64,000 nt of DNA from an uncultured Candidatus Saccharibacteria bacterium (GCA_964409035.1 CAYPBQ010000002.1:83267-147266), one strand, 5' to 3'; numbered from the stretch's first letter, positions 8,692 through 48,428 are shown. Numbers and translations are program-made. Notes: generated by a model not told the origin, from the letters alone.

Positions 8692-10103
8692 CGATACGCA
8701 CCATACAGCACGGCATACATAAACACGACAACCCAGTAAGAAAATTGGGGTATGTGTAGTGTTATAAATGGTAAGTTAGATAGCCAAGTAGTGACTCCTA
8801 GTTGGTACGAAAGCACCAAGCTGGTCACCGCGCCCGGCACCACCGCTACTAGACTTATTGGATATGCCAACAGTCCAACCACACCAGTTATAAAGCCAAG
8901 TGCCATCGCGAATGGCACAACCAAAAGTACGGCAATGTTAGAAATCGGAGCAATGAGTGACATAGTGCCCGAAAACCATAAAAGATGAGGGAGTACAAAT
9001 AGTTGCGTAGCAAACGTGGTTGCCAATATCTCACGGATACTAAACAAGTGTGTCATACGTCCGAATATACTTTGCATGATGGGAGTAAAATAAATAATTC
9101 CTAGTGTTGCTAAAAACGACAATTGAAATGAGGGGTCGAAGGCAAGAATGAGCGGATGAAAAAACACCATAATTCCTCCAGCAACAAGAAGTGCTCGGGT
9201 AATATTGTAGTTTCTCCCCACCACCCTTGAAAGGAGAACAATGACCGCCATTATTGAGGCGCGAATAATAGTTGCTGAGCCACCCGTAAGTATTGCGAAA
9301 AGAACTATACTAATACCTCCAACAAACGCACCGATGCTAGTAGGTAAAAATCCAAGCGCACGAAGTAACCAGTCAGCTATTATGCTTACGTTATATCCAG
9401 AGAGAACCACAATATGGATAAGTCCCGTATCACGAAAACGATGCAACAACTCTTCACCCATGGATTCTTTTGCCCCAAGAAGTAATCCTCCGAGTAGTGA
9501 CATTTGTGGTTCGGGGATAACATTTTGAAGTGAATCTAAAAAACGTTCTTTGTTTGAAAACAAAAATTCTTTTACAACATTTCCCTGCCCATGACCAACT
9601 ACAGATACTCTAGGGAAGGTCATGATAGCGGTAATACTATCCTTAAGTAGCCATGCCTCGTATGCAAATTCTCTCCCCTCATCTGTTGTGAATGTTGTGG
9701 GGCGTTCAATAACCCCATCAAGGGATACTCGATCGCCATATGAAAGATCGTGACTTAGTGGCAACGTGACACGAATACGTGTCGTATCCGTTGATACCAC
9801 AACATGCTGATTTTTCTCTCGTATATCAGGTTCATCCACTATTATTCCTTCAATCACGGCGTGTCCATATATGGGACGAGTGGCTTCAATTGCATCAATA
9901 TGAAGATCGGTACGCAACACCCCAATACTTGCTGCTAGTAAAAAAATTGCCACCACTGTCCCCTTGGTGCGTAAGGTGAGTACTGAAACAAATGAAAGCA
10001 ACCAAAGAAACACCACGCCTGAAATGCCAAAATCAAAAAAAGATCGCCACAGGACACCGAGTCCTGTGGCGATCACCATGAGTTCAATAAGATATCTTCT
10101 CAT
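8640..10103 (-). CDS. comEC: ComEC/Rec2 DNA-uptake channel, membrane core only (N-terminal extracellular domain plus the competence domain), with no MBL domain.
   Basis: 487 aa polytopic membrane protein with the ComEC-like arrangement. The MBL domain is encoded separately at 6816-7667. Confidence 0.75.
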   Translation of the reverse strand: MRRYLIELMVIATGLGVLWRSFFDFGISGVVFLWLLSFVSVLTLRTKGTVVAIFLLAASIGVLRTDLHIDAIEATRPIYGHAVIEGIIVDEPDIREKNQHVVVSTDTTRIRVTLPLSHDLSYGDRVSLDGVIERPTTFTTDEGREFAYEAWLLKDSITAIMTFPRVSVVGHGQGNVVKEFLFSNKERFLDSLQNVIPEPQMSLLGGLLLGAKESMGEELLHRFRDTGLIHIVVLSGYNVSIIADWLLRALGFLPTSIGAFVGGISIVLFAILTGGSATIIRASIMAVIVLLSRVVGRNYNITRALLVAGGIMVFFHPLILAFDPSFQLSFLATLGIIYFTPIMQSIFGRMTHLFSIREILATTFATQLFVLPHLLWFSGTMSLIAPISNIAVLLVVPFAMALGFITGVVGLLAYPISLVAVVPGAVTSLVLSYQLGVTTWLSNLPFITLHIPQFSYWVVVFMYAVLYGAYRYAGKEKRDATVSKFIA

Positions 10104-10465
10104 GTTTTTAGTTTTCTTATCACATCAATGATGAGTGTTACAAACAACAACAAACCCAAGAACAGAGACGGTATACCTAGCAATGGTGATCTGGTTAGCA
10201 GTTCTGATAGTCCAAACGGAAATAAAATAATCGCCCCGTAAAATTGACACGCGTTTATGAATTCGGATTGCTCGATGGTGATACTTTTTTCGGCAATCAC
10301 TTCTTTTGCTGATAACTGAGGATATAAGTACAAGGAAATATATTTTAAGATGGTCAATGGGATTATGCCCACCAACATCTTCCAGCTACCAAACACAAAC
10401 GAGTATGTAATTCCAATTAATTGCAAAAATACTCCATAAAAAACTAGTCGCATTGCCATCTCCAT
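10100..10465 (-). CDS. Hypothetical membrane protein upstream of comEC; its stop overlaps the comEC start by 4 nt.
   Basis: Four predicted transmembrane segments. Translational coupling to comEC. Confidence 0.4.
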   Translation of the reverse strand: MEMAMRLVFYGVFLQLIGITYSFVFGSWKMLVGIIPLTILKYISLYLYPQLSAKEVIAEKSITIEQSEFINACQFYGAIILFPFGLSELLTRSPLLGIPSLFLGLLLFVTLIIDVIRKLKT

Positions 10466-10522
10466 CCCCCTCCAATAGACGACCTGACAAAAAAGATACT
10501 CTTTATAATAAAATTGGCAAGA

Positions 10523-10942
10523 TTATACCGCGCCATCCATAGCAATGTTTGCAAGCTCATCAGCCTTTGCGTTTTGTTCTCTTTTTATATGCACAAATGA
10601 TACATGAGCAAATCGTACAAGAAGCGCTCGTACCCGTTCGTGTTGTTTTTTTAAGCCAGGATCTTTTACTTTGTATTCACCTCTCATTTGCTTAATGATA
10701 AGCTCGCTATCCATATGCACGAGCACGTTCTTGCCTTCTTGCTTGTGAACAATGAGTAACTGGAGTCCCTCTATAAGACCTTCGTACTCAGCATAGTTAT
10801 TTGTTTGATGCCCAATATACTTTGCGTGCTCAAAAACAATTTCACCCGCCGAGTCTTTTGCCCACACACCAATGCCGGATATACCGGGATTACCCCTTGC
10901 TCCTCCATCGCTATATAATTCTATAATTTCTTTCATAGGCAT
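10523..10942 (-). CDS. rnhA: Ribonuclease HI. The start is probably the internal MPMKEII; the ORF is open up to 11023.
   Basis: YSDGGARGNPG and a DSELII-type catalytic DEDD pattern. Confidence 0.8.
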   Translation of the reverse strand: MPMKEIIELYSDGGARGNPGISGIGVWAKDSAGEIVFEHAKYIGHQTNNYAEYEGLIEGLQLLIVHKQEGKNVLVHMDSELIIKQMRGEYKVKDPGLKKQHERVRALLVRFAHVSFVHIKREQNAKADELANIAMDGAV

Positions 10943-10946
10943 GCGT

Positions 10947-10974
10947 GCACTATCGCGATATATCGCGATAGTGC
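10947..10974. repeat. 28-bp perfect palindrome gcacTATCGCGATATATCGCGATAgtgc (copy 1 of 4).
   Basis: Exact reverse-complement symmetry. It lies just upstream of the rnhA start and at the 3' end of the yerC-like gene. Confidence 0.9.
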
Positions 10975-10982
10975 GTGTGGGG

Positions 10983-11435
10983 TTATCTTTTATTACGGGA
11001 GTGCAGACTCTGCCACCGCCCATTACCTACTACTGGTGGCAATCCTACTCTAAGCGCATACTCAATATTTTTCCATAGTGACTCACTGCGTTTGGTATTG
11101 CTAAACAATCGTTGCAGCGATTCAAATCCTCCAGTGGTAATCATTGCAGTATACATTCGTACTGTGGAATCACTCACGCTCAGTATTTTTGCGATTCTAT
11201 AGGTAGAATATCCTCTTACCACCATACCTATAATTGCCAAACGCTTGGCAAGCATAACCCGTTCTGTTGGAGTAAACAAACTAAGTATTACTTGAGATTT
11301 TTGTTGCGAAAGTAATTCAGCAAATTCTTCGGTGATTTTTTTGTCTGCGTACTCTTGAATATGCTTTTTTGAGACATGTGTCACCCCTCCAATATAGCGA
11401 TATATCGCTATATTGTCGTGAAAGTTTTCCACCAT
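10983..11435 (-). CDS. TrpR-related YerC/YecD-family helix-turn-helix protein, a putative transcriptional regulator.
   Basis: LFTPTERVMLAKRLAIIGMVVRGYSTYRIAKILSVSDSTVRMY matches the YerC/TrpR HTH consensus. The N-terminal limit is uncertain. Confidence 0.55.
   Translation of the reverse strand: MVENFHDNIAIYRYIGGVTHVSKKHIQEYADKKITEEFAELLSQQKSQVILSLFTPTERVMLAKRLAIIGMVVRGYSTYRIAKILSVSDSTVRMYTAMITTGGFESLQRLFSNTKRSESLWKNIEYALRVGLPPVVGNGRWQSLHSRNKR
11391..11414. repeat. 24-bp perfect palindrome aaTATAGCGATATATCGCTATAtt (copy 2, variant core).
   Basis: Exact symmetry. It lies inside the 5' part of the yerC-like ORF. Confidence 0.9.
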
Positions 11436-11446
11436 ACCTAGCCAAT

Positions 11447-11476
11447 CACACTATCGCGATATATCGCGATAGTGTG
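11447..11476. repeat. 30-bp perfect palindrome cacacTATCGCGATATATCGCGATAgtgtg (copy 3).
   Basis: Exact symmetry. It lies in the 41-bp gap between the recJ stop and the yerC-like start. Confidence 0.9.
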
Positions 11477-13162
11477 TTACACAGAGAGTGATGAATCATC
11501 CATTACAATGTCTAGTATTCTTATACGTACAGCAGTACGCCCCATAAATGTACCGCTCTCTATGTTTCCCATCACCGCCACCTTTTTACCAACCTCAGGA
11601 AATACTTCAAAGTCTGTTGGTTTTTTAAAGAAAGCAATTGCCTCTCGCTTTGTTCTTTTATCATCTACACAAATCATGCGAACATGCTCACCACTTTTAC
11701 CAAAAGACGCCACCTCTTTAATGTGTACTGGAGTGATTTTTAAATACGGCTTTTTGTTACCTTCCCCAAACGGGCGTAACGTTTCTAAACTTTCCAAGAA
11801 TGAATCCGATATTTCTGTAAGTGAAACCGTAATTACATGTGGAGCATCAGAACTATCTATTACTTTGGGAATAGTACGCATCACCCTCACCAATGCCTCT
11901 TCTAAAAAATGAATTTGTTCGTGAGAAACAGAAAATCCACCAGAACAATCATGTCCTCCTTTATCTAAAAAATACTCCTGTGCTCGCTCCATGATTTCCA
12001 TTACATTGTAACCAAGAGGAGACCTACACGACCCCTTTATAACTGAGCCGTCTTCTCTCCCCCACAAGAATACAGGTACCCCATATTCGCCCATGAGTGT
12101 ATTTGCAACAAGACCAAGCAAGGAAGGTTTCCATGACGGATCACCAAGGACAATAACCCCGTTTATTTCTCTGTGGGCGAGACGTTTTCTTACCTCCTTA
12201 ACAAGTGACGCAACTACCCCCTTTCGTTTATTGTTTAGTAAATCTAGTTCTCGCGCGAGAGTTTCAGCTTCTTGTATGCTTTCTGTAGAAAGCAATGTAA
12301 ATGCTTGTTCAGGCAGACCCATTCTGCTTGCAGCATTAATACGAGGACTAATGCCAAATCCTATATCATCTTCAGTAAGTGTTTTTTGATCAATACGTAA
12401 ACGTTTTAGAAGCGCTCGAATACCAGGTCGAGATGTTTTTCGCATGACATGAAGACCATACCGTGCAAAAGCACGATTCTCTCCAAGAAGAGGCACCATA
12501 TCGGATAGTGTTGCTATAGCAACCATATCAAGAAGCCATTTCTCCCACCCAGCTGGGGCATCTTCGATAGGCCTAAGTGCAATCAGTGCTCTTACTAATT
12601 GAAATGCCACGCCAGCGCCGCAGATATCTTTGTTTGGATATATATCATCCTTTTGTTTTGGATTAACGAGAGCAATTGCTGCCGGTGGGTGTTCTGGTAC
12701 GGTGTGGTGATCTGTTATTATCACATCAACACCAAGTGCTCGAGCACGATCCACTTCTTTATTATCTGTTGATCCACAATCAATGGTGATAATGAGTGTA
12801 GCTCCACTACTTGCTATCTCTTCTATTGCCCGCACATTAAGACCAAATCCCTCAAGCACCCTATGTGGTGTGTAGACGCGAACATGTTCATACTTTACCT
12901 TCTTAAAATAATCATTAAGTATGACACCGCCCGGAATGCCGTCAGTATCGTAATCGGTATAGATTACTATCTGCTCTTTATTATCCATAGCGGTAAGTAT
13001 TCTTTTTCCCGCTATTTCTATTTGAGAAAGTAAAAATGGATCATGAACATCTCTGTTGTAATCTGGATACAGAAATAACTTGCGCGCCTCCTCATCAACG
13101 AGCCCTCGAGAAATAAGTAATCGTTCTATAAGCTCTGGCGTCATAGACGCATATTGTACCAC
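11477..13162 (-). CDS. recJ: Single-stranded-DNA-specific exonuclease RecJ.
   Basis: DHH and DHHA1 motifs (DCGSTD ... VIITDHH). 561 aa. Confidence 0.9.
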   Translation of the reverse strand: MVQYASMTPELIERLLISRGLVDEEARKLFLYPDYNRDVHDPFLLSQIEIAGKRILTAMDNKEQIVIYTDYDTDGIPGGVILNDYFKKVKYEHVRVYTPHRVLEGFGLNVRAIEEIASSGATLIITIDCGSTDNKEVDRARALGVDVIITDHHTVPEHPPAAIALVNPKQKDDIYPNKDICGAGVAFQLVRALIALRPIEDAPAGWEKWLLDMVAIATLSDMVPLLGENRAFARYGLHVMRKTSRPGIRALLKRLRIDQKTLTEDDIGFGISPRINAASRMGLPEQAFTLLSTESIQEAETLARELDLLNNKRKGVVASLVKEVRKRLAHREINGVIVLGDPSWKPSLLGLVANTLMGEYGVPVFLWGREDGSVIKGSCRSPLGYNVMEIMERAQEYFLDKGGHDCSGGFSVSHEQIHFLEEALVRVMRTIPKVIDSSDAPHVITVSLTEISDSFLESLETLRPFGEGNKKPYLKITPVHIKEVASFGKSGEHVRMICVDDKRTKREAIAFFKKPTDFEVFPEVGKKVAVMGNIESGTFMGRTAVRIRILDIVMDDSSLSV

Positions 13163-13189
13163 GCGACCACTCTATGATTTACGTACGAC

Positions 13190-13606
13190 ATGGTAGTCTA
13201 TTGCTGTATGCAAGACTCAATATTTACAAAAATTCTAAAGGGCGAAATGCCCGGAGTGATAGTGTGGCAAGATGAAAAAGCCTTTATTCTTATGGATAAA
13301 TTCCCCTCAGTAGAGGGGCAGGCACTTGTTATTCCTAAGACACAAACTGATTACATGTTTGCTCTTGATGAGGACCTCTATCTACATCTGTGGAGTGTTA
13401 CTAATCATCTAGCACACGCTATGAATGTGTCGTTTCCAAACACGCGTGTCTGCGTAGTAGTTGAAGGCTTTGATGTACCACACGTACACATACGCGTGTA
13501 CCCAGTACCACACGGTAAACCACTTGTCGCACATAAAGGTGAAATGGCAGATGATGAGGCAATGGAAAAATTAGCACAAACAATACGATCATCACTTACG
13601 CTATAG
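13190..13606 (+). CDS. HIT-family (histidine triad) nucleotide hydrolase.
   Basis: HVHIRVYP histidine-triad variant. About 138 aa. Confidence 0.8.
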   Translation: MVVYCCMQDSIFTKILKGEMPGVIVWQDEKAFILMDKFPSVEGQALVIPKTQTDYMFALDEDLYLHLWSVTNHLAHAMNVSFPNTRVCVVVEGFDVPHVHIRVYPVPHGKPLVAHKGEMADDEAMEKLAQTIRSSLTL

Positions 13607-14078
13607 ATACAACATGCGGATTTACTACCGCGCGATAGTCGGCTGAGGTTATAGCCATCGAGACACCTCTGTCACCTGCATTAAAGATAATCTCGTTATT
13701 GGTATATAGCGATATATCGCTATATACCGGAAGGTTCCATAGTATGCCAAATGGTGGCACGCCCCCTGGCTTAACACCATCAGTAATTTCTGCGACCTCT
13801 TCTGGCGTAGCAAAGCGTATATCACTTGCACCGAGTACCTCTTTTAATTTCTTTGAATCAAATTTTTTATCTCCAGGTACCACCACCATGACAAAAAATT
13901 TTTCACCATGTTGTTTTACTCTCACGATTAAGGCCTTTGCCCCCTGAGATAATGAATATTCTGGACGCACCATTGCTGCCTCCTCGCTGGTGCAAACTGG
14001 TTCATGAACAAATTTTTTATACAATACTCCGCGTGACGACAAAAGTGACTCTATGAGGGCTACTGTTTTATGCTCCAT
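13596..14078 (-). CDS. YbaK/ProX-type aminoacyl-tRNA deacylase domain protein.
   Basis: GGVPPFG and LPVY...FNAG conserved blocks of the YbaK/EbsC family. Confidence 0.65.
   Translation of the reverse strand: MEHKTVALIESLLSSRGVLYKKFVHEPVCTSEEAAMVRPEYSLSQGAKALIVRVKQHGEKFFVMVVVPGDKKFDSKKLKEVLGASDIRFATPEEVAEITDGVKPGGVPPFGILWNLPVYSDISLYTNNEIIFNAGDRGVSMAITSADYRAVVNPHVVSIA
13701..13728. repeat. 28-bp perfect palindrome ggTATATAGCGATATATCGCTATATAcc (copy 4), embedded in the ybaK-like CDS.
   Basis: Exact symmetry. It encodes VYSDISLYT within a conserved block. Confidence 0.9.
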
Positions 14079-14080
14079 AG

Positions 14081-15220
14081 TTAGTTATTGTGCACGAGCG
14101 CCTCAAGTCCAACAAGAGTACCTTCTGCAAGATAATCAAGCATTGCACCGCCGCCTGTTGAAAGAAAAGTGAATTTATCTTCAAGTTTAAGCTGTCCTAT
14201 AGACGCTATCGTATCTCCCCCGCCCACAATCGATATAGCTGATGATGATGCAACCGCCTTTGCAAGTAACTCAGTTTCATTACTAAAACCTTTCTCGTAG
14301 TTTCCAAGCGGGCCGTTCCATAACACTGTTGCCGCATGAGAAGCAAGAGAACTTAGCATGTCTGTAGTTTTTGTACCAACATCCACTATTACGTCATCAG
14401 GGAGTACTTCAGTTGGCTCAACCACTACTGCAGCACCCTCACGAACCACAGTAACATCAAGTGGGAGAAGCAGATTCTTGTTATCCATAAGAGGAAGAAG
14501 CTCTTTTGTATCATCTGCAACCAATGATTTACCCACTTCATATCCCTTGGCTTTAAAAAAGTCGTTTGCGATTGCGCCACCAATAAAAATAGTGTCGTAA
14601 TGCTGTAGGCGCTTTATCAAAGGTATTTTTGTATGAAACTTTGCTCCGCCAAGAATAAGCAAAGAGGGTGACGCAGGAGTAAGTGCTGTATTAAGGTATG
14701 TGACCTCTTCCATAAATTCTACTCCAGCAAATGATGGTAGTAATCGTGGAACACCAACAATAGAGGCGTGCTGTCTGTGTGAGGCAGCGAATGCATCATT
14801 TACATAGACATCTGCTAGCGTTGCCAAGCGCTCTGCAAAGACTGCATCTGCTTCCACTTCACCACTATTTGATCTGAGGTTTTCAAGCAATAAGACTTCA
14901 CCCTCTTTAAGAGATGACACAAGACGCTCTGCTTCATCAAGGGTTTTCGCAAAATGAATAGGGACATGTTGCTGTAAGTAGTGATAAACAGGACGAAGAG
15001 TACTCTGCCCATCTTTGCCTATATGTGAAATAAGCACTACCCTACCTCCACCGTGAATAATTGCCGCAATAGTAGGAAGAGCCCTTCTAATACGAAAATC
15101 ATTAGTAATGACGCCATTATCTATGGGTACATTAAGGTCGGCACGAACCAAGACGCACCTGCCAGCAATATCCTCGGGAGAAAAAGTTCGAAGTTTATTT
15201 TGTTGCGTCATGCACAGCAC
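14081..15220 (-). CDS. pgk: Phosphoglycerate kinase.
   Basis: 379 aa with full-length PGK signature. Confidence 0.9.
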   Translation of the reverse strand: MLCMTQQNKLRTFSPEDIAGRCVLVRADLNVPIDNGVITNDFRIRRALPTIAAIIHGGGRVVLISHIGKDGQSTLRPVYHYLQQHVPIHFAKTLDEAERLVSSLKEGEVLLLENLRSNSGEVEADAVFAERLATLADVYVNDAFAASHRQHASIVGVPRLLPSFAGVEFMEEVTYLNTALTPASPSLLILGGAKFHTKIPLIKRLQHYDTIFIGGAIANDFFKAKGYEVGKSLVADDTKELLPLMDNKNLLLPLDVTVVREGAAVVVEPTEVLPDDVIVDVGTKTTDMLSSLASHAATVLWNGPLGNYEKGFSNETELLAKAVASSSAISIVGGGDTIASIGQLKLEDKFTFLSTGGGAMLDYLAEGTLVGLEALVHNN

Positions 15221-25778: not shown

Positions 25779-25942
25779 TCTCGCTACACAACATATAGCA
25801 ATAGAATAATCCCCACCAACTGGTGGGGATTATTCTATCCACACAAGAAAACTCTCCTATCACACTTTTGTTGGTATACTTATCGCAAGTATACGGCTTG
25901 TGCTTGGTACTTGTTATTATCATTTATTTAATAAAAGAACAT

Positions 25943-33463: not shown

Positions 33464-33666
33464 AGAAACCTCCTCTGCGAACAAATGACTCAGATCAAGT
33501 AATTCTAGCGTTTGCATATATTATTCAGTTACTCAATATCGTACGATATTGTGTCTGATAAAAGGCTTCGCTTAAGAAGCGAATAAAAATAGTATACACA
33601 AAAATGCCCTATATTCAATTATCAGTGAGGCATTTCAGGTTCGCTAATAAGTGTTATACTCGGCGT

Positions 33667-39673: not shown

Positions 39674-40187
39674 CTCGTTTGAGTGCCTTGAGCGCTCGAT
39701 GTAATCGTACTGATATTACATTTTCACTCTCACCGGTGATGGTTGCTATTTCTTTTGGAGATAGCTCGTCAATAAAGCGCATGGTTACCACCTGCGCGTA
39801 CTGGTCTGGAACATGAGCGAGCAAATCGTACACCTTCTCTGCATCAATACTCTTTACGGTATCTTTATGAGAGAGATCAACTAGCTCAGGAAAATCTCCC
39901 TCCTTCACATGATCACTCTCGAGTATTTCATCAAGAGATGAGGTTTTTTTCTTCCTATACTCATCGATAATAAGGTTGTTGAGGACTCGATACAAAAATG
40001 AACGATATTCGTCGATAATCCCCCCTTCACTTATGAACTTCCATGTTTTCATGAAGGTATCTTGGACTACGTCCTTTGCCTTTTCTCTATCTGAAAGACG
40101 AAATATGGCATGACGAAAAAGTACATCCGAATACTCATCAAATGACGAAATAAAAGCTTCTTCTGTTACTTTTTTGTTCTCTCCCAT
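39639..40187 (-). CDS. ECF-type RNA polymerase sigma-70 factor.
   Basis: Region 2 (VVQDTFMKTWKF) and region 4 HTH (LSPKEIATITGESENVISVRLHRALKAL). Confidence 0.8.
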   Translation of the reverse strand: MGENKKVTEEAFISSFDEYSDVLFRHAIFRLSDREKAKDVVQDTFMKTWKFISEGGIIDEYRSFLYRVLNNLIIDEYRKKKTSSLDEILESDHVKEGDFPELVDLSHKDTVKSIDAEKVYDLLAHVPDQYAQVVTMRFIDELSPKEIATITGESENVISVRLHRALKALKRVATEKQFVYEG

Positions 40188-40236
40188 AGTGAAGACGATT
40201 GAGGTATGCCTACTCTTTCATGTATACCATTAGGCA

Positions 40237-41034
40237 CTACCGTATCCCTAAAAACACCTCTACACCCTTTATTATACGCGACTCAAGGAGGGAGCTAACA
40301 CCATAATGACCTCCCTTCTTATGCATAACCATGCGTATCCCCATGCGTGTTGCAAATTCCTTTACTGGCGCACTTAACACTACGGTATCATCATCGGCAT
40401 GAAAGATACACACCTTCTCTGCAGCTATGAGCTTTGTGCTGTGGACTGGATTGTATAAAGTGCCTTTCCTCAATTTTTGTACCACATTCTTTGTCCATCT
40501 ATATCCATTACCAAATGCCTGTAGCGCATACGCATGCATAGCCTCAAATGGTTCACCATTTGAGGGGTGCGCCCAATCTACAACTGGCGAGAGGGCTATC
40601 ACCTTTTCTACTAATGGATGATGTGATGCCATAAGTACGGCAGGCCCTCCGAAGGAAGCTCCCACAAGATGAATTGACTTAATTGGTATATGTACCATCT
40701 GTTTACTCCACAGATCTTCGAAACCTTTTTCTATACCCGAAATAACATCAAGCACATCATAGTGGTGTGACTTTGCTAGAAACACCCCACCGCTTTCCCA
40801 ACTGCCTCTATATCGAGGCTGAAACGCCCAATACCCCTTGCTAGAAAAGTACTCTAGTAATTCAGGGGCGCCGGGACTACTTGGTGCTCCTTTCATTATA
40901 ATTACCACCTTTCGTGGTGATTGCTTTGGTGGTGTAGCTTTTTTGCCTTGTGCAACTGCCTTCATATAGGCATATACATCTTTTGGAGGTAAATATTCTG
41001 AAACTATGTCGTGTGAGAAGCGGGTACGAAACAT
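40237..41034 (-). CDS. Alpha/beta-hydrolase fold protein (S9/dienelactone-hydrolase-like).
   Basis: GASFGG nucleophile elbow, with downstream catalytic D and H. Confidence 0.6.
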   Translation of the reverse strand: MFRTRFSHDIVSEYLPPKDVYAYMKAVAQGKKATPPKQSPRKVVIIMKGAPSSPGAPELLEYFSSKGYWAFQPRYRGSWESGGVFLAKSHHYDVLDVISGIEKGFEDLWSKQMVHIPIKSIHLVGASFGGPAVLMASHHPLVEKVIALSPVVDWAHPSNGEPFEAMHAYALQAFGNGYRWTKNVVQKLRKGTLYNPVHSTKLIAAEKVCIFHADDDTVVLSAPVKEFATRMGIRMVMHKKGGHYGVSSLLESRIIKGVEVFLGIR

Positions 41035-41216
41035 ATTACATTACTTGTTCCTCGCAAAAATAACCAACCATTCCTACAGATATCATAATAATGGCGATAA
41101 CCGCCCAAAATGCAAGGGGATATTCTAACCAGATACATATGTATCCGGATTCTACACACTATCCAGTCTATATAACTTACTCGTGCGTTGTTATGGAATG
41201 AGCACCCTACGAGGAT

Positions 41217-41582
41217 TTATAAGATGTATATGAAAGTGGTCGGGGATAGATTTAAATTTTTTTGTTGCCTCCCAAGATATTGATAGGTATCCGCAAGGTG
41301 CGTGTGTTTAATCTCTACCAATTCTTCCTTCTCTTCTTGGGTTAAACCTCGTTCATCTACATGCCTAAGTGGTATAAGCATGTGATGTACTTCTGCAAAC
41401 TTTCCGTACGGAAAGGCGTTTATAACTATCCGCCAGTGGTTAAATATGTGCAGTGCAGGCTCATCGCTACAAAGCGGACACCCAGCATCCTCCGGTTGTG
41501 ATTTGCGGTGGGCTCGGTATGCTTCTTCTACCTCTGGTAGCCTAAGTGATACTGGTGTATACGACATAACCTGAGTGTGCAT
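41217..41582 (-). CDS. Hypothetical HIT-like or CPxC-motif protein.
   Basis: GCPLCS motif and an HHxLIPLRH His cluster. Weak assignment. Confidence 0.3.
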   Translation of the reverse strand: MHTQVMSYTPVSLRLPEVEEAYRAHRKSQPEDAGCPLCSDEPALHIFNHWRIVINAFPYGKFAEVHHMLIPLRHVDERGLTQEEKEELVEIKHTHLADTYQYLGRQQKNLNLSPTTFIYIL

Positions 41583-41622
41583 CCTAAAAATAATTCCAAA
41601 CCTGCTTCTCTCTCTTATGTTG

Positions 41623-41693
41623 TCGGGGCGCCGAGAATCGAACTCGGGCTACACGGTCCCAAACCGTGCGTACTACCTCTATACGACGCCCCG
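41623..41693 (-). tRNA. tRNA-Pro(UGG), no CCA encoded.
   Basis: C1:G72 acceptor typical of bacterial tRNA-Pro. Anticodon loop UUUGGGA. T-arm CCGAG-TTCGATT-CTCGG. Confidence 0.8.
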
Positions 41694-41764
41694 CGAGGCA
41701 AAACCATATGACTCGTTACGATAACGTACCATAATATACGAATAAAATGAAGCGTATATCGCTC

Positions 41765-42190
41765 TTAAAATGAGACATTCTCAAAAAACTCACACTTTGC
41801 CAGCTTCTTATTCTCATCTATATAAACTGTAATAAGATCAACCTGCCACTCCCCCACCTCACGCTCTTCAAGATACATTTCAATGGTGCTGAGCAATTTT
41901 GCGAGCTTGTGTCGGGTCATATTTTCTTCAGGTCGTATGCCTGGCACAGACGGCACGTAGCCACCCTCTGACCCTGTAAATGTGCATATCGCACTCTTTA
42001 CTTCTATAAAGTGAGTTACTCCCCCATTTGTTGCAACTAAATCTATTTCTCCATGAGTGGTGCGGATATTTCTATCCACCACATGGTGACCTCTATCTAA
42101 AAGCCACTTAACTGCAATGTCCTCTCCCAGTTTACCTGTCTTTTGAGCGGTTGTTGTACCATAGTTCCACATATTCATATTATAAGCCAT
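41765..42190 (-). CDS. YraN (UPF0102) family endonuclease-fold protein.
   Basis: GEDIAVKWLLDRGHHVVDRN...GEIDLV...FIEVKS restriction-endonuclease-like core. Confidence 0.65.
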   Translation of the reverse strand: MAYNMNMWNYGTTTAQKTGKLGEDIAVKWLLDRGHHVVDRNIRTTHGEIDLVATNGGVTHFIEVKSAICTFTGSEGGYVPSVPGIRPEENMTRHKLAKLLSTIEMYLEEREVGEWQVDLITVYIDENKKLAKCEFFENVSF

Positions 42191-42329
42191 ATTTCAACCT
42201 TTTGCTATAAAAAGACTCTCTCGTATGAGACTAAAAAGGTCGTCCTTTATACACTAATCCCCAGAGTTATCCACAGTTTTGACCTATTCTGTGCATTTCT
42301 TTTATCCCTTTGGCAGTAGCAAAGGGATT

Positions 42330-42602
42330 AGAGAATGGAGTAATCTTTTAATACGACCAAAGAAACAAGGAGCGGTGCGACTAGATTTCTTGAAGTACTC
42401 CTGTGGTGCAGGTAGGGAGAAAGGGTCAGCTCACTAAGTACATTGAGTCGTAAACTCCTCAATGTACTAAGTGGCTCCTCCCCGGCCTCACCTGTCGTAC
42501 TCGCTATCGCTCCGTGCGACATGGCTCCGGCTTTCGATTCTCCACGAAATGCACGAAGGTGTATTACTCTACCCATTCAAAATATATCGTCAAAGCTTCG
42601 CT
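42330..42602 (-). ncRNA. rnpB: Probable RNase P RNA, reduced, about 270 nt.
   Basis: The reverse strand reads GAGAAUCGAAAGCCGGAGCCAUGUCGCACGGAGCGAUAGCGAG. This resembles the P4 5' strand and the downstream conserved region of RNase P RNA; compare the B. subtilis GGAAAGUCCAUGCUCGCACGGUGCUGAGAUGC. A candidate P4 3' strand (GCUCCUUGUUUC) lies ~170 nt downstream. The element sits directly 3' of tRNA-Gly. Confidence 0.5.
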
Positions 42603-42618
42603 TTTTCCTCTTATTTTG

Positions 42619-42689
42619 TGCGGGTAGGGAGAATCGAACTCCCGTCTGCTCCATGGCAAGGAGCCGTCATACCACTAAACTATACCCGC
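42619..42689 (-). tRNA. tRNA-Gly(GCC), no CCA encoded.
   Basis: Acceptor GCGGGTA/TACCCGC, anticodon loop UUGCCAU, T-arm GGGAG-TTCGATT-CTCCC. Confidence 0.85.
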
Positions 42690-42754
42690 AGTTGAGGTAG
42701 CAACGCTACTCAATTGCTCAAAACAATACCACTTATCCCCTCCCCTCTCAAGTT

Positions 42755-42964
42755 TTAATGAACATCCTGCTTTAACTCTTTGAGCGATAGGTCGTTAAAA
42801 TATAGGTACGCCAAAGCAAAAAGACCTGGAACGATATCCCCTAGTAATGAGTTACCAAAAAAGTAGTCTGCGCCGTGCCATATAGCCCTCCAGATGAGCG
42901 CCAAACACACTACTACTAGCACTGAGTTGATTACTCCATGACGCTTAATAAAATCTTGAAACAT
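42755..42964 (-). CDS. Small two-TM membrane protein, hypothetical.
   Basis: ORF plus hydrophobicity only. Confidence 0.3.
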   Translation of the reverse strand: MFQDFIKRHGVINSVLVVVCLALIWRAIWHGADYFFGNSLLGDIVPGLFALAYLYFNDLSLKELKQDVH

Positions 42965-43007
42965 GTATCGTATAACTAGCGAATCAAATTAAAACCCCTA
43001 CTTTTTG

Positions 43008-43079
43008 TGCGCCCGCCAGGACTCGAACCCAGAATAACTGATCCGAAGTCAGTTGTGATATCCATTTCACCACGGGCGC
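43008..43079 (-). tRNA. tRNA-Arg(UCG), no CCA encoded.
   Basis: Acceptor GCGCCCG/CGGGCGC, anticodon loop CUUCGGA. Confidence 0.75.
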
Positions 43080-43139
43080 ATATGCGGAATAATAGCCTAG
43101 TATAGAGAAAATACAAAGTCTGGAGTACACTATATACAC

Positions 43140-44609
43140 ATGGAGATTACCCGACCCTACATACCTGATGAGGTGGCGCGTGTCACTGCTGTAATAGAAA
43201 ATGCTGGATTTGAAGCATATCTTGTTGGTGGATGTGTGCGGGATCTTCTACTTGGAAGAGCACCAAAAGACTGGGATATTACCACCAACGCAGTACCTGC
43301 AGAAATTCAATCTCTCTTCGAAGAAACTTATTACCACAACGAATTTGGTACAGTGGGAGTTGTAACAACAAGTGAACTTCCCTCTTTAAAGGTCATAGAG
43401 ATTACGCCATATAGGACAGAAGGCTCTTATTCTGACGCGAGACGCCCAGATAGTGTGTCCTTTAGCAAAAACCTTTCAGATGACCTGGAACGACGTGATT
43501 TTAGTATAAATGCGATGGCATATAATGTTTCATCCGAAACACTTGTTGATATTTTTAACGGAAAAGAAGACCTAAAAAGGTGTTTAATTAGAGCAGTTGG
43601 TGATGCAAATAAAAGATTTTCTGAAGATGCGCTGCGTATTCTACGCGCTGTACGCCTTTCTGCTGAATTAGGATTTACCATTGAAGCAGATACCCTATCT
43701 GCAATAGTTACATGTGTAACGCAGTTGGAGAAGATTTCAAAAGAACGTATCAGAGATGAATTTTCAAGAATAATGCTTTCAGATAGACCAGCTGAGGCAC
43801 TGTTTCTTATGAAACAGGTCAAAATGCTGCAATATGTTATTCCAGACATTATGAGGTCTATTAATGTTGAGCAGAATAAATCCCACAAGTACAACGTATT
43901 TGAGCACTTAGTGCGCAGCGCCCAACACGCAGCAGATAAAAACCTACCGCTAGACATGCGATTGGCAGCTCTATTCCACGATATTTCAAAACCTGAAAGC
44001 AGGAGGTTTTCACAGGAAACACATGACTATACGTTCTACGGACATGAAGTAATTGGCGCTAGAGTAACAAAAAGAGCTTTACAGAGCCTTAAATATCCAA
44101 ATGACCTCGTCGAGAGGGTTTCTTTGTTGGTTAGGTGGCATATGTTCTTCTCTGATCCTGATGAAATTACACTTTCAGCGGTCCGAAGAATGATTAGTAA
44201 TGTTGGGAAGGAGAACATTTGGGACCTGCTAGAACTAAGAATATGCGACAGAATTGGTAGTGGTAGACCTAAGGAGCAGCCATTTAGATTTAGAAGGTAC
44301 AAGGCAATGGTTGAAGAAGCTCTGCGTGACCCAATCAGTGTAGCAATGTTGAAAATTGACGGCGCTAAGCTGATGGAAACATTTCATGAGAAACCAGGAC
44401 CAAGGATTGGCTGGACATTACACGCCCTTCTTGAAGAAGTTATAGAAGATCCAAAGAAAAACACTGAGATGCTGCTCCTTAAAAGAGCTAAAGAGCTGCT
44501 TGATTTACCAAATGAAGAGCTTGAAACGTTAGGCAAAAAAGGCAGGGAAAAGCGTGACGAAGTTGATGAAGCAGAGATTGCTGAAATACAAAAAAAGTAC
44601 GGTGTGTAG
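43140..44609 (+). CDS. cca: CCA-adding tRNA nucleotidyltransferase (PolyA_pol head domain plus HD domain).
   Basis: GGCVRDLLLGRAPKDWDITT head motif. RDFSINAMA. A C-terminal HD-domain histidine/aspartate pattern. Confidence 0.85.
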   Translation: MEITRPYIPDEVARVTAVIENAGFEAYLVGGCVRDLLLGRAPKDWDITTNAVPAEIQSLFEETYYHNEFGTVGVVTTSELPSLKVIEITPYRTEGSYSDARRPDSVSFSKNLSDDLERRDFSINAMAYNVSSETLVDIFNGKEDLKRCLIRAVGDANKRFSEDALRILRAVRLSAELGFTIEADTLSAIVTCVTQLEKISKERIRDEFSRIMLSDRPAEALFLMKQVKMLQYVIPDIMRSINVEQNKSHKYNVFEHLVRSAQHAADKNLPLDMRLAALFHDISKPESRRFSQETHDYTFYGHEVIGARVTKRALQSLKYPNDLVERVSLLVRWHMFFSDPDEITLSAVRRMISNVGKENIWDLLELRICDRIGSGRPKEQPFRFRRYKAMVEEALRDPISVAMLKIDGAKLMETFHEKPGPRIGWTLHALLEEVIEDPKKNTEMLLLKRAKELLDLPNEELETLGKKGREKRDEVDEAEIAEIQKKYGV

Positions 44610-44996
44610 CTAAACGGCTCAACAAAGCCAATTTACAAAAATTGGTAGTTTCATGGGAAACGAAAAATGCCCCGTTGGCATTGTGGAGAAAGCCGACGAG
44701 GCACTCGCTATCCGCAGAATGCGGAAAGAACAAACTAGACTCTATACTTAAGAACAATTATCTACTTTCTGGGGTGATGTCACTTTATACAAAATTATTG
44801 TCTATTAGTGAGGACAAACACATTCCAGGGCTACGCCAAGATTATTATTCTCAAGAAACTCAAGAACAGAAAGAACTAAGCTACGATCTCAAGGAGAAGC
44901 GAGACCGTATTGGCACACACCATGTTTATTGATCTGATAATAGTATCTGTCCTTTATGCAAACATGTAAAGGACATGGGTGTGGATAACTTGTCCT

Positions 44997-45773
44997 TTAT
45001 AGTTCCTTGTTTAGCGTAAGGGTTATGGGGCAATGATCTGAGCCTAGTATGTCGCTTTGTATAGTCGTATTTTTAAGATAGGGAAGTAGCTCAGTTGAAA
45101 TAAAAAAGTAGTCAATTCTCCATCCCACATTTCTGTTTCTTGCAAATGATTTCATATCCCAGTATGTATATGCATCTTTTTTTGTTGGGTGTAGTTGCCT
45201 GAATGTATCTATAAATCCTGCGTTTAGTAGCTCGTCTACCCACGCCCTCTCCTCAGGAAGAAATCCAACGTGGGTTTCATTTTCTTTTGGTCTTGCTATG
45301 TCGATTTCTTCGTGGGCAACATTTACATCGCCCATAACAATAACGTGCATACCCTTCTTTTTAAGTGAAGTAATATAAGAAAGAAATGCGTCGTAAAATG
45401 CCAGTTTATATGAAAGACGCTCAGGAGCACCTCCACCGTTAGGGAAGTAGACATTACAGATAGCAGTATTACCATAAAATGCAATAATTGTGCGCCCTTC
45501 TTGGTCATTAGTACCAAAGTCATAGAGCACAGAATCTGGCTCTTTTTTTGAGTAAAGAGCAACACCACTATAGCCCTTTCTGGTTTTTGACGAAGCAAAA
45601 TATGCATTATACCCCTTGAGTGTTCTTACCTCCTCAGGTATTTGTGCTTCTTCTGCCTTAGTTTCTTGAATACCTATTACATCTGCGCCGTTACAGTCTG
45701 CAAGAAACGTATCCCAATAACCCTGCTTGTGAGTTGCGCGTATGCCGTTAGTGTTCCACGAAACTAGTTTCAT
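44997..45773 (-). CDS. xth: Exodeoxyribonuclease III (AP endonuclease).
   Basis: MKLVSWNTNGIR ... QETK ... SDHCP catalytic blocks. Confidence 0.9.
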   Translation of the reverse strand: MKLVSWNTNGIRATHKQGYWDTFLADCNGADVIGIQETKAEEAQIPEEVRTLKGYNAYFASSKTRKGYSGVALYSKKEPDSVLYDFGTNDQEGRTIIAFYGNTAICNVYFPNGGGAPERLSYKLAFYDAFLSYITSLKKKGMHVIVMGDVNVAHEEIDIARPKENETHVGFLPEERAWVDELLNAGFIDTFRQLHPTKKDAYTYWDMKSFARNRNVGWRIDYFFISTELLPYLKNTTIQSDILGSDHCPITLTLNKEL

Positions 45774-45863
45774 ACGGCTATCGTAGCACGCAAATTAAGT
45801 GGATTGTATCCATGGCCCAACAGTGAAGTTATATAACAATGAAGCGTACAAAAAGGAAGTGTC

Positions 45864-46250
45864 ATGGGCACGAACAACATCACAAAACCAGTAACACCGC
45901 TAAAAGTTACAAGATCAAAGTCATTTTATGAGGGGCTCTGGTGGTTATATGTTGGCGGTGTTGAACACGCAGTCAGCATAATAGCTAAAATGAATTATCA
46001 AGAAAAAATACTGTTCCTTGGATGGATGCGTGGACAGGTTATCTTGGGATGGCAAGTATTTATTGAGCACCTGCAGTACCATGCGGCATTGCCTTTCAAT
46101 AATGCACCAAAAAGGAAACCTTACTCACTCATTGGTGATGCCTCTGGAAGAACACTATTTGAATTTATGGTTGCTCTAGATAGAAAACTTACCCACGCTA
46201 ACCTAAGTGTCGCTAAAGTACTTGAGCAAAGGCACGGAGGGAAATATTAG
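45864..46250 (+). CDS. Hypothetical 128-aa protein.
   Basis: ORF with a downstream terminator. No recognisable motif. Confidence 0.35.
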   Translation: MGTNNITKPVTPLKVTRSKSFYEGLWWLYVGGVEHAVSIIAKMNYQEKILFLGWMRGQVILGWQVFIEHLQYHAALPFNNAPKRKPYSLIGDASGRTLFEFMVALDRKLTHANLSVAKVLEQRHGGKY

Positions 46251-46252
46251 AG

Positions 46253-46279
46253 TGTACGCCCAGCGTTTGCTGGGCGTAC
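46253..46279. terminator. Bidirectional terminator gtacgcccagc-gtttg-ctgggcgtac.
   Basis: Perfect 11-bp stem. Confidence 0.6.
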
Positions 46280-46281
46280 CA

Positions 46282-47205
46282 TCATCTTTTTGTATGAAAA
46301 CGCTTGTGTACTTCACGTAAATGCTTATCAGTTACGTGTGTATACACTTGAGTAGTTGCGATATTGGCATGACCTAAAAGCGCTTGCACCGAGCGAAGAT
46401 CAGCACCATTTGACAACAAGTCGGTTGCAAATGAGTGCCTGATTACGTGCGGGGTAACTTTTTTGGTGATACCTGCTTTTATAGCGTATTGCTTAACAAT
46501 TCGCTCAACAGAGCGCGGGGTGAGGCGTGTGGTGGTGGCATTTTTTGCTCGATTTGATGTTTGTACAAACAGCGCATCATCCATGTCTTTTCTTTTTGCA
46601 AGATATGCTCGTATACCCTCACGAGCAGCATCAGATAAAAACACAACGCGAACCTTTTCTCCTTTACCCCTAACAGAAAACTCCTCTTTAGTGAGGTCTA
46701 AATCACGCGACAGCGAGCAAAGCTCTGATACTCGTAATCCAGTTGAAAATAGGAGTTCAAGCATGGCTCTATCACGAAGAGACTTAACATCGTCACCATT
46801 TGCTGCTGCTATTAGTCGAGTAAGCTCTTCAAATGATATGAGATCGAGCGATCGCTCTCCGACTTTTGCTAACTCAATACGCTCAGGAGATAGGGATTCG
46901 ACACCACGCTTTCGCAGATACTTTAAAAATGCCCGGAGGGCAATAAGGTAGTAATTTTGAGTTTTTTTCTTTAGTGTTTCCTTTCTTCCACCGATTGAGG
47001 TGCCAGATTCCTGGCGGTTAAGCCATAATCGATATTCTCTAAGTAGAGAGTCATCAATAGTTGATGGATTTTCTACCTTAGCAAAAGAGAGAAAGCGAGC
47101 GAGGTAACGCTCATAATTCTCTATAGTATTGAGCGAGCGTCCCTTTTCTATTTCAAGGTGTTCTAAAAACTCACGCTTTAGTGATTCTATTTGCGTGTAT
47201 GACAT
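46282..47205 (-). CDS. Tyrosine recombinase XerC/XerD family. The start is probably MSYTQIES.
   Basis: C-terminal RHSFATDLL ... LLGHANIATTQVYTHV catalytic R-H-R-Y box. Confidence 0.85.
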   Translation of the reverse strand: MSYTQIESLKREFLEHLEIEKGRSLNTIENYERYLARFLSFAKVENPSTIDDSLLREYRLWLNRQESGTSIGGRKETLKKKTQNYYLIALRAFLKYLRKRGVESLSPERIELAKVGERSLDLISFEELTRLIAAANGDDVKSLRDRAMLELLFSTGLRVSELCSLSRDLDLTKEEFSVRGKGEKVRVVFLSDAAREGIRAYLAKRKDMDDALFVQTSNRAKNATTTRLTPRSVERIVKQYAIKAGITKKVTPHVIRHSFATDLLSNGADLRSVQALLGHANIATTQVYTHVTDKHLREVHKRFHTKR

Positions 47206-47242
47206 ATCATAAGTATGACACCGGTGTCGCAAAATAAAAAGT

Positions 47243-47263
47243 GCGCCGCCTGTAAGGCGGCGC
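47243..47263 (-). terminator. Hairpin gcgccgcc-tgtaa-ggcggcgc followed by a minus-strand T-run.
   Basis: Seen in the sequence. It overlaps the stop of the small lipoprotein ORF. Confidence 0.5.
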
Positions 47264-47454
47264 TATCTGCGCCACGTCCTTTTAGTGGGGACGCAGCGGT
47301 AGGGGAACCAATCTGTGTTTGGTGACGGACACAGTGGGTGTGGGACTTCTATTTTATACGTTGGGGTTCTTGGACCCCCTTCAAATCCAGCATCGCCGGA
47401 TAAAGCACACCCTCCAAGAAGGAGAAGTGCGAAAAAAGCTAGGGCGAATCTCAT
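47263..47454 (-). CDS. Small putative lipoprotein (signal MRFALAFFALLLLGGCA).
   Basis: GGAGGG Shine-Dalgarno site before the second ATG. A lipobox, LLGGC. Confidence 0.4.
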   Translation of the reverse strand: MRFALAFFALLLLGGCALSGDAGFEGGPRTPTYKIEVPHPLCPSPNTDWFPYRCVPTKRTWRR

Positions 47455-47523
47455 CCTGCCCTCCTTCCTCACCAGACTTCACCACCCCTTGCCAAAAAAG
47501 TCAATACGTGCTATAAATGTGTC

Positions 47524-47790
47524 ATGCTGACAAAGCGACAAAAAGAGAATGCAATACGTGAAATAAAGCGCCACGATACCGACACAGGATCGCCGGAGGC
47601 TCAGATCGCGCTTCTCACTAAAACAATAAACGAACTGACCGACCATCTAAAAAAGCATGGGAAGGATCTTCATTCTCGACGAGGTCTTTTGGGTATGGTT
47701 GCCGACAGACGTTCACATCTTCGCTATCTAGAGAAAAAAGACAAAAAGCGCTACAACGCTGTAGTAAAAAAGCTTGATCTTAAAAAGTAG
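47524..47790 (+). CDS. rpsO: 30S ribosomal protein S15.
   Basis: 88 aa. GSPEAQIALLT ... HLKKH..D.HSRRGLL is the S15 signature. Confidence 0.9.
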   Translation: MLTKRQKENAIREIKRHDTDTGSPEAQIALLTKTINELTDHLKKHGKDLHSRRGLLGMVADRRSHLRYLEKKDKKRYNAVVKKLDLKK

Positions 47791-47885
47791 TTAGCTGTGT
47801 CGCTCGACACAACAGTGGTGTGCATTTTGTATAAACGCGTTATAGTTAAGCGAGGGAATTTTTATATTTATATATAGTATTTTTT

Positions 47886-48428
47886 ATGGCTGCAATTAAA
47901 CATGGGGCGCAACGAGTGGGGGTATTTATTGATACGCAAAATTTATATCACAGCGCAAAGCATTTGTATCAAGCAAAGGTTAATTTTGGTTCAGTGTTAA
48001 AAGACGCGCTTGCTGGACGCACGCTAATACGCGCAATCGCATATGTGATAACCACAGAAAGCGGCGAAGAACAAGGCTTTTTTGAAGCACTTGAAAAGGT
48101 TGGTATCGAAACAAAGACTAAGGACCTACAAGTATTCTATGGGGGAGCAAAGAAGGCAGACTGGGATGTCGGACTTGCGGTTGATGCTATTAAAATGGCA
48201 TCTAAGCTAGACACTGTAATCATAGCCTCTGGTGATGGCGATTTCGCGCCACTTGTTGAATATCTTAAAATGAATGAGGGGTGCCAAGTTGAAGCAATAT
48301 CATTTGGCCGCTCAACGTCAGGAGCACTGAGAGAGGCGGTGGATGTATTTACCGACCTAGATGAAAATCCAAAAAACTTCCTAATTGGTTATCGTGGTTC
48401 AAAATTCATACCTCGAACAAAGAAATAG
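47886..48428 (+). CDS. NYN/LabA-like (PIN-fold) domain protein.
   Basis: RVGVFIDTQNLYHS N-terminal block and the acidic residues of LabA/NYN nucleases. Confidence 0.6.
   Translation: MAAIKHGAQRVGVFIDTQNLYHSAKHLYQAKVNFGSVLKDALAGRTLIRAIAYVITTESGEEQGFFEALEKVGIETKTKDLQVFYGGAKKADWDVGLAVDAIKMASKLDTVIIASGDGDFAPLVEYLKMNEGCQVEAISFGRSTSGALREAVDVFTDLDENPKNFLIGYRGSKFIPRTKK

Follow-up and report, generated by a model that had tools for sequence, protein, structure and literature searches.

We analyzed a 64,000-nt stretch of DNA from an uncultured Candidatus Saccharibacteria (TM7) bacterium (GCA_964409035.1, CAYPBQ010000002.1:83267-147266; the whole stretch is called the window here) and found four perfect palindromes of 26–30 bp with the common core GCGATATATCGC, which are quite probably operators of the TrpR-family helix-turn-helix (HTH) protein encoded at 10983–11384 on the minus strand. 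This agrees with the preliminary description of the window, which had proposed a dimeric-HTH operator, the adjacent YerC/TrpR-like protein as its binder, and autoregulation; supporting it are the co-occurrence of gene and palindromes across the Candidate Phyla Radiation (CPR), the co-variation of the sites with the recognition helix, the overlap of one site with the predicted promoter, and a predicted TrpR-like fold. We propose that the HTH protein would bind the palindromes, most likely as a two-fold symmetric dimer, and that by occupying palindrome 2, on the spacer and -10 box of the predicted promoter, it would act as an autorepressor; palindromes 3 and 1 would be the outer members of a conserved set bracketing the gene on its 5' and 3' sides, and palindrome 4 would be a recently gained extra site in a ybaK-like gene.

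The palindromes, none of which was assigned to a strand, are of two sequence types. Type A is built on TATCGCGATA|TATCGCGATA and comprises palindrome 1 (10947–10974), a 28-bp sequence GCACTATCGCGATATATCGCGATAGTGC (GCAC-TATCGCGATA|TATCGCGATA-GTGC) that we refer to as the downstream bracket site, and palindrome 3 (11447–11476), a 30-bp auxiliary upstream site CACACTATCGCGATATATCGCGATAGTGTG. Type B is built on TATAGCGATA|TATCGCTATA and comprises palindrome 2 (11390–11415), a 26-bp sequence CAATATAGCGATATATCGCTATATTG (CAA-TATAGCGATA|TATCGCTATA-TTG) that forms the upstream bracket and is the putative autoregulatory site, and palindrome 4 (13701–13728), a 28-bp sequence GGTATATAGCGATATATCGCTATATACC that lies inside the ybaK-like coding sequence and is a lineage-specific extra. 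Palindrome 2 had earlier been given as 24 bp at 11391–11414; the palindrome is there, but its measured extent is 26 bp. That four perfect palindromes are more than chance would produce was confirmed: the degenerate 20-mer TATMGCGATATATCGCKATA matched the window four times, and still four times when up to three mismatches were allowed, where dinucleotide-preserving shuffles gave an expectation of 0.01 and none of 100 shuffles yielded four matches. With the 12-mer core and up to two mismatches there were eight matches, the four sites and four weak ones at chance level (shuffles expect 1.8).

The position of palindrome 2 relative to the HTH gene depends on the start codon. The longest open reading frame (ORF) begins at ATG 11435 and encodes 150 residues, and public gene calls annotate it so; we rejected this start because the N-termini of homologs, which read M-[TPA]-H-[VI]-S-K with M1, H3, and S5 nearly invariant in a 59-sequence alignment, align at GTG 11384, which is probably the true start and gives a protein of 133 residues. 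With this start palindrome 2 lies upstream of the gene, centered ~18 bp ahead of the GTG, and not inside the 5' end of yerC as the preliminary description had it, a placement that holds only with ATG 11435. A scan for consensus promoters found a single sigma-70-like match upstream of the gene, at 11391–11419 on the minus strand (-35 ACGACA at 11419–11414, a 17-nt spacer, and -10 TATATT at 11396–11391), and palindrome 2 covers its spacer and -10. The predicted -10 ends 6 nt ahead of the GTG, and the same start geometry (CGCTATATT followed by 6–7 nt and a start codon) recurs in L037/L078 and L010 (L-numbers are our locus identifiers), which together suggests a leaderless or near-leaderless mRNA. 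A GGAGGG just before the GTG was considered as a Shine-Dalgarno sequence (GGAGG), but its spacing of ~1 nt is too short, making a leaderless message more likely.

The association of the palindromes with the HTH gene is not confined to this genome. A motif-only scan found the 20-mer adjoining HTH homologs in three other CPR genomes (L010, L021, and L037; Parcubacteria, Kaiserbacteria, and another Patescibacteria). Searching metagenome contigs by protein only, with an alignment of the HTH proteins as query, gave 80 loci, ~45 of which carry the 10-mer CGATATATCG on both sides of the gene (~0.005 per locus expected), once just ahead of the start codon and once at or just past the stop codon. Of 61 non-redundant CPR metagenome loci for which both flanks could be compared, 53 have a sequence of 12 nt or more (at most one mismatch) that occurs both upstream and downstream of the gene, compared with 7 of 61 in a control that matched the upstream flank against the gene interior. 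In many loci the stop codon is overlapped by the downstream copy, and additional sites ~60 bp from a bracket site, like palindrome 3, whose center is 59 bp upstream of that of palindrome 2, are also found in L053 and L064/L065. Since co-directional and convergent neighbors beyond the downstream copy are equally frequent (26 loci each), this copy is not simply the operator of the next gene.

The exceptions to the bracket are of two kinds. One is a subfamily of short proteins (102–108 residues) without the C-terminal extension described below, which have an upstream inverted repeat only; the other is L086, in which a canonical hairpin and T-run terminator occupies the downstream position. The inverted repeat of the short subfamily (L089–L093, L095, L100, L107, and L111) is TGAATT-N8-AATTCA with a TATATT -10-like box in its spacer, and these loci also have a conserved AGAGCCCCTGC within ~35 nt after the stop codon.

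The palindromes change in step with the protein, both with its clade and with a residue of its recognition helix. In loci with CGATATATCG, the bases that immediately flank the core follow residue x of the recognition-helix motif V-S-x-S-T: by raw counts, uncorrected for phylogeny, position 6 from the dyad is A or T where x is proline (24 of 26 sites), glycine goes with GGG|CGATA (5 of 5), and isoleucine with GTG|CGATA (14 of 17), serine goes with a GC center in 5 of 9 sites (the other four are GTA|TGATA with VTSQT-type helices), and VT[RS]QT helices go with TGATATATCA (6 of 6). This residue-base pattern, as read from the sequences, is what a protein that reads the half-site directly would give. 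More distant homologs have other palindromes at the same two positions, e.g., GTGCGATGCATCGCAC, CTACGATTAATCGTAG, ATGATTTAAATCAT, ATGATTCGAATCAT, CAATGAATTAATTCATTG, and TTAATACGTATTAA, with CGATGCATCG, CGATTAATCG, and TGAATTAATTCA also recorded. Over a set of 89 distinct sites, symmetry greatly exceeds what composition would give up to positions 12–13 from the dyad and falls to background beyond them, and the modal palindrome arm is 12 bp, which agrees with a footprint of defined size, ~24 bp, on double-stranded DNA; the center is self-complementary in every sequence class, which points to two-fold recognition of duplex DNA and not to a hairpin loop. From the modal 24-bp unit, the adjacency to the gene, and the recognition-helix co-variation we infer a match to the ~20-bp palindromic operator bound by a dimer. 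We also observed two HTH paralogs in one CPR genome, on the same 706-kb contig (Ga0208375_1000003; L058 and L069), each bracketed by its own palindrome (CTTCGATATATCGAAG vs. GATACGATATATCGTATC); comparison of the two suggests that they are kept orthogonal by half-site positions 6–8.

The family to which the window protein belongs has at least 1,479 members at E ≤ 0.001, mostly in the CPR and almost all with Pfam PF01371 (Trp_repressor), for which nearly all of the best 120 homologs have a precomputed hit; some sources name members YerC or Trp-family regulator. A family profile searched against the PDB matched the TrpR-like structures 3kor (E-value 1.4e-4), 3g1c, and 3frw, with E. coli TrpR at an E-value of 0.9. 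An AlphaFold2 model of the window protein (mean confidence score, pLDDT, 80.8) has eight helices, and its best fold matches in the PDB are structures of E. coli TrpR (1trr, 1tro, and 1jhg; TM-score 0.53 by query and 0.66 by target, probability 0.99), with 3kor, 3g1c, and 3frw also matched, so that the protein as modeled has an all-helical TrpR-like fold, with the HTH in the C-terminal half of the core. Past the ~100-residue core that TrpR and HisR have, the model continues in a C-terminal extension with helices at 97–114 and 125–131 and a conserved GxPxxxG block.

Several points weigh against an operator role for the palindromes or against this protein as their binder. The window protein alone scored only 20.6 bits against PF01371 (E-value 4.6e-4), below the 27-bit cut-off (further below-threshold Pfam matches were HTH_23 and GerE), and the Foldseek E-values were weak (0.24), though TrpR was consistently on top. 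The residue-base counts are uncorrected for phylogeny. A plain promoter-operator model leaves the downstream copy unaccounted for, and perfect symmetry over 26–30 bp is unusual for operators. Five of the eight sites in this species lie 0–20 nt past a stop codon, and the outer arms of the sites are symmetric despite their sequence changes, which simple protein contacts do not predict. Finally, the same 20-mer occurs upstream of PadR-family genes, which means that the binder cannot be told from the sequence alone.

The last point came from the motif-only scan mentioned above, which covered GTDB with one genome per species (185,579 species) and matched the exact pattern in 46 loci. Of these, 26 that belong to at least eight other phyla have the exact 20-mer TATCGCGATATATCGCGATA 20–50 bp upstream of a gene for a PadR-family protein (PF03551, ~180–220 residues) or of its ATP-binding cassette (ABC) transporter operon (L001, L005, L007–L009, L014–L018, L020, L027–L029, L031, L032, L034, L036, L038, L039, L045, and L046; also L004, L011, L035, and L040). 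The phyla include Actinomycetota, Chloroflexota, Cyanobacteria, Armatimonadota, Dormibacterota, Eremiobacterota, Alphaproteobacteria, and an uncultured archaeon (L017), and in Thermoplasmata archaea the 20-mer stands ahead of an ABC-transporter operon whose last gene is the PadR gene. The identity of this 20-mer might be taken to mean that another regulator, such as a PadR-family protein encoded elsewhere, binds the palindromes in the window and that the TrpR-like gene is a target only. We think this highly improbable, as no PadR homolog was found in the window (tblastn with three PadR proteins, best E-value 2.2) and none of the CPR sites has a PadR gene within 1.5 kb; in the CPR the palindrome follows the TrpR-like gene through many changes of sequence, in step with its recognition helix. 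Moreover, the PadR loci have a single upstream site with no bracket, and PadR is a winged-helix protein unrelated to TrpR. We treat the striking identity of the PadR and CPR 20-mers as convergence on a simple palindrome; on sequence grounds, TATCGCGATATATCGCGATA looks like an ultra-conserved autoregulatory operator of PadR genes that an unrelated CPR regulator family has in common with them. In the literature searched we found no mention of TATCGCGATATATCGCGATA upstream of PadR genes.

A gene standing between two copies of one sequence, with neighbors that differ among CPR lineages, is also what a mobile or recombining cassette could leave, the flanking palindromes being target-site duplications, recombination sites, or ends like those of miniature inverted-repeat transposable elements and the solo copies being footprints or empty sites. 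The HTH of the window protein has weak similarity to the DNA-binding domains of IS630-type transposases, and several public contigs break at a palindrome. Against a cassette, which we consider very unlikely, there is no transposase or recombinase in or beside the unit and the protein is a 133-residue HTH only; each end is a whole palindrome in itself, where a terminal inverted repeat would have a single arm; there are only eight copies per genome; and a scan of viral contigs for the 20-mer gave no match. In addition, the Saccharibacteria loci L059, L060, and L063, with proteins only 40–45% identical to that of the window, keep the order HIT/recJ-HTH-rnhA-comEC, and in L060 and L063 both flanking palindromes are AGTGCGATGCATCGCACT. 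Since the order was kept while both palindromes changed, sites and protein evolved together in place, and such concerted change argues against a mobile cassette. Other CPR classes have different neighbors, often a convergent htpX/lemA pair.

Contig breaks at perfect palindromes are an expected effect of assembly. Many public contigs end within ~100 bp of a palindrome (L019, L042, L030/L010, L025, L026, L027, L035, and L043), and the flanks of L019:1585–1604 and L042:35–54 are reverse complements of each other, so that these two contigs join across the site. Perfect palindromes thus appear to break short-read assemblies, and such sites may thereby be hidden in metagenome-assembled genomes.

The number of sites per genome could be judged from a related Saccharibacteria genome, CAZLUD01 (L024), whose HTH protein is 96% identical to that of the window and whose locus DNA is ~86% identical. 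All four palindromes are kept there with identical spacing, as all four are also kept on same-species contigs. CAZLUD01 has eight exact copies in all, on contigs of 419 and 237 kb. Four make up this 2.8-kb cluster; the other four lie beyond the region homologous to the window, 6 nt past the tmk stop codon, 20 nt past the stop codon of a VTT-domain gene, 10 nt past the stop codon of a small ORF, and inside tsaD. The motif is therefore low in copy number and clustered, and not the randomly distributed, high-copy repeat that the preliminary description had named as the finding that would speak against an operator. DNA-uptake signal sequences occur hundreds to thousands of times per genome. Either such a signal or a restriction-modification recognition site might be suspected from the perfect palindromes, the two TCGCGA in type A, and the nearby comEC and recJ; given eight copies per genome with half in one 2.8-kb cluster, a length far beyond that of restriction-modification sites, and strict start and stop positions in one gene family that neither accounts for, we assign both a practically negligible chance. 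The restriction site, uptake site, and mobile element that had been offered as alternatives thus find no support, in view of the low copy number, the strict gene-bound positions, and the kept synteny.

A closer competitor is that the palindromes act mainly as nucleic-acid hairpins, e.g., as terminators without a U-tract, stabilizers of mRNA 3' ends, or elements like repetitive extragenic palindromic (REP) sequences, the link to the HTH gene being secondary. Each palindrome is predicted to form a stable RNA hairpin (-17.6 to -23.4 kcal/mol, z about -5 to -6), and the sites past stop codons, the downstream copies that overlap the stop codon in the family and lie between convergent genes in half of the loci, and the canonical hairpin with T-run at the same position in L086 would all suit such a role. 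So would the outer positions 11–16, which differ among the sites in this species (CACG, CACAC, CACCAC, ACC, AACCA, AAC, and ATGG) and yet stay paired, being symmetric in seven of eight; this outer-arm symmetry possibly comes from a hairpin or cruciform role or from quasi-palindrome correction by template switching. However, no T-run follows the hairpins on the coding (minus) strand, and a terminator scan hit only palindrome 1, on the plus strand and antisense to all local genes, which we judged not meaningful. The sequence and not only the pairing is conserved and co-varies with the adjacent protein, the central 2–6 nt that would form the loop are self-complementary in every class, which a loop does not need, and the upstream copy, which overlaps the predicted promoter, could be transcribed only in part, if at all. 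An Rfam scan of 10000–14500 at a permissive E-value gave no match, and other genes of the window are without such 3' palindromes, there being one other long palindrome in the 64 kb. Taken together, we regard a mainly hairpin-based role as unlikely.

Returning to the palindromes as operators of the HTH protein, our preferred guess for the purpose of the bracket is that in a compact genome bound sites would insulate the autoregulated gene from read-through, as roadblocks or a terminator substitute, and/or would pair by looping. Looping between the flanking sites is compatible with their placement, and the lack of the downstream copy in the short subfamily, which also lacks the C-terminal extension, is compatible with looping through this extension but is no proof of it. 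Protein roadblocks that insulate the gene are likewise compatible with the observations, as recJ runs straight into palindrome 3, and so is substitution for a terminator, as L086 has a canonical terminator at this position and the hairpins are without a U-tract. A stronger version of this idea, to which we give a distinctly smaller chance than to a simple operator role and which we would call speculative, is that bound palindromes are protein-dependent, sequence-specific, bidirectional roadblock terminators or insulators in the CPR and that the protein is at once an autorepressor and a termination or insulation factor. The protein would then mark the 3' ends of a handful of genes, as the five of eight sites within 20 nt past a stop codon might indicate, and the perfect symmetry would be kept for two-way action or for cruciform extrusion.

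TrpR-family regulators offer the nearest known mechanism. They bind 20-bp palindromic operators and often autoregulate (PMC9413887); Bacillus YerC is HisR, a TrpR-family histidine repressor of Firmicutes with the operator consensus cacTTTAnnnnnnTAAAgtg, and roughly half of the hisR genes have a HisR site upstream (PMC9413887). The system described here is alike in having a small all-helical HTH protein with a TrpR-like fold, a two-fold symmetric site of ~20 bp near or over a promoter, and a putative site upstream of the regulator's own gene, which implies autoregulation as for HisR (PMC9413887). It differs in that its operator is centered on GCGATATATCGC (nnGCGATATATCGCnn) and not on cacTTTAnnnnnnTAAAgtg or TGTACTnGTnnACnAGTACA, its neighbors are recJ, rnhA, comEC, and ybaK with no his or trp genes (nor did we find any amino-acid biosynthesis genes in the genome context of the HTH gene), its 133-residue protein has a conserved extension that HisR (~100 residues) does not have, and its palindromes are perfect over 24–30 bp. 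Furthermore, most CPR family members have a second copy at the stop codon, a feature for which PMC9413887 gives no TrpR or HisR counterpart. By its different operator, its lack of his or trp genes nearby, and its extra C-terminal region, the CPR family is not orthologous to TrpR or HisR; an autoregulated TrpR-family repressor is a known mechanism, and what is new is a CPR subfamily with a C-terminal extension, perfect palindromes of 24–30 bp, and an operator pair at start and stop.

Other well-known systems resemble parts of this layout. Operator pairs that act by DNA looping include GalR OE/OI, DeoR, LacI O1/O2, and lambda CI OL/OR, and as at the HTH gene, these place two or three identical sites of one repressor around a promoter, at distances of tens to hundreds of bp; the likeness is one of mechanism and not of membership, and here the partner site lies past the stop codon, 440–500 bp away. 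REP sequences with their associated tyrosine transposases (RAYT; REPtron) also consist of a gene flanked by a palindromic repeat that occurs elsewhere in the genome, often just past stop codons, but here a Y1/HUH transposase is lacking, the Pfam and NCBIfam matches being of HTH type only, there are eight copies and not hundreds, and the palindromes are perfect, blunt, and without a loop. Intrinsic terminators similarly place a stable hairpin immediately past the stop codon; unlike them, the palindromes have no coding-strand U-tract, have an identical sequence at promoter and 3' end, and are conserved in a way that co-varies with the protein.

Few members of the CPR/Patescibacteria are cultivated, and in the literature searched we found no described regulator-operator pair for this group. 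A search for TrpR or YerC together with CPR returned only the HisR paper (PMC9413887), none of the 15 matches listed in a further one contained TrpR or Trp repressor, terms for transcription factors were not found in a CPR review, and the palindrome strings appeared in unrelated uses only (primers, minor-groove-binder oligonucleotides, and MarR sites). The putative pair described here is a testable one for a family of at least 1,479 members, for which it predicts both the half-site and the specificity-determining residue, and its layout, in which one operator stands by the start codon of the regulator gene and another by the stop codon, is unusual and conserved. Should the bracket be a protein-dependent insulator or terminator, very compact genomes would have a new means of setting the limits of their transcription units. 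In complete CPR genomes, regulons could be defined from the lineage-specific palindromes, and the palindromes could be tried as orthogonal repressor/operator parts in genetically tractable Saccharibacteria.

Palindrome 4 encodes VYSDISLYT within the ybaK-like coding sequence (13596–14078, minus strand) and lies ~95 nt beyond the stop codon of the convergent HIT gene (13208–13606, plus strand). The preliminary description had taken LPVYSDISLY as a conserved block, but homologs of YbaK read LPVYCDQSLL, IPVYADGSLF, LPVIADESLF, etc., and only the V and D are nearly invariant. Nor was the palindrome intact in two homologs compared at the DNA level: one with 82% identity has GTATATACCGATACATCGCTTTATGAC at this site, with six differences in 28 bp that include two amino-acid changes, and the other, with 71% identity, has no palindrome there. 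Comparison of these sequences indicates that the perfect palindrome is a recent, lineage-specific gain that altered the protein and is not a by-product of protein constraint. The ybaK-like and HIT ORFs converge, with 3' ends overlapping by 11 bp (13596–13606).

The genes around the HTH gene are, with the exception of the HIT gene, the only relevant one off this strand, all on the minus strand, in the order ybaK-like, recJ, HTH, rnhA, a membrane ORF, and comEC. Palindrome 1 lies 8 nt past the HTH stop codon and 10 nt ahead of the ATG (10936) of rnhA (10523–10936; RNase H, Pfam RVT_3/RNase_H), which is directly downstream of it. As the consensus scan detected no separate rnhA promoter, co-transcription of rnhA with the HTH gene is likely, and control of rnhA through palindrome 1, as had been suggested, is possible from this placement. 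The suggested control of recJ (11477–13144; Pfam DHH, DHHA1, and RecJ_OB; a 555-residue gene call on a same-species contig) did not hold up: palindrome 3 abuts the recJ stop codon (11477–11479) and so lies at the 3' end of this gene, not at its promoter. We saw no obvious promoter region of recJ's own apart from a ~60-bp gap that it has in common with the divergent HIT gene.

Elsewhere in the window, at 33534–33551, is a perfect 18-bp palindrome CAATATCGTACGATATTG, 53 nt upstream of an ORF starting at 33604, which had been described as related to the four (and placed slightly differently). We rejected it as a fifth member because its half-sites are laid out differently, as ATATCG-TA-CGATAT, and it does not match the family pattern; ~0.24 palindromes of this kind are expected by chance per 64 kb, and it may be an operator of another regulator. 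The sole other long palindrome in the 64 kb is a near-perfect one of 38 bp at 25801–25838, with 18-nt arms (ATAGAATAATCCCCACCA and TGGTGGGGATTATTCTAT) around a 2-nt center and a sequence unrelated to the four; it lies in the gap past the ORF whose end is at 25778, and it overlaps the GTG (25823) given as start of the ORF that follows. The cumulative GC skew of the window has a minimum near 44 kb and then rises (~40000–48000), which may mark a replication origin.

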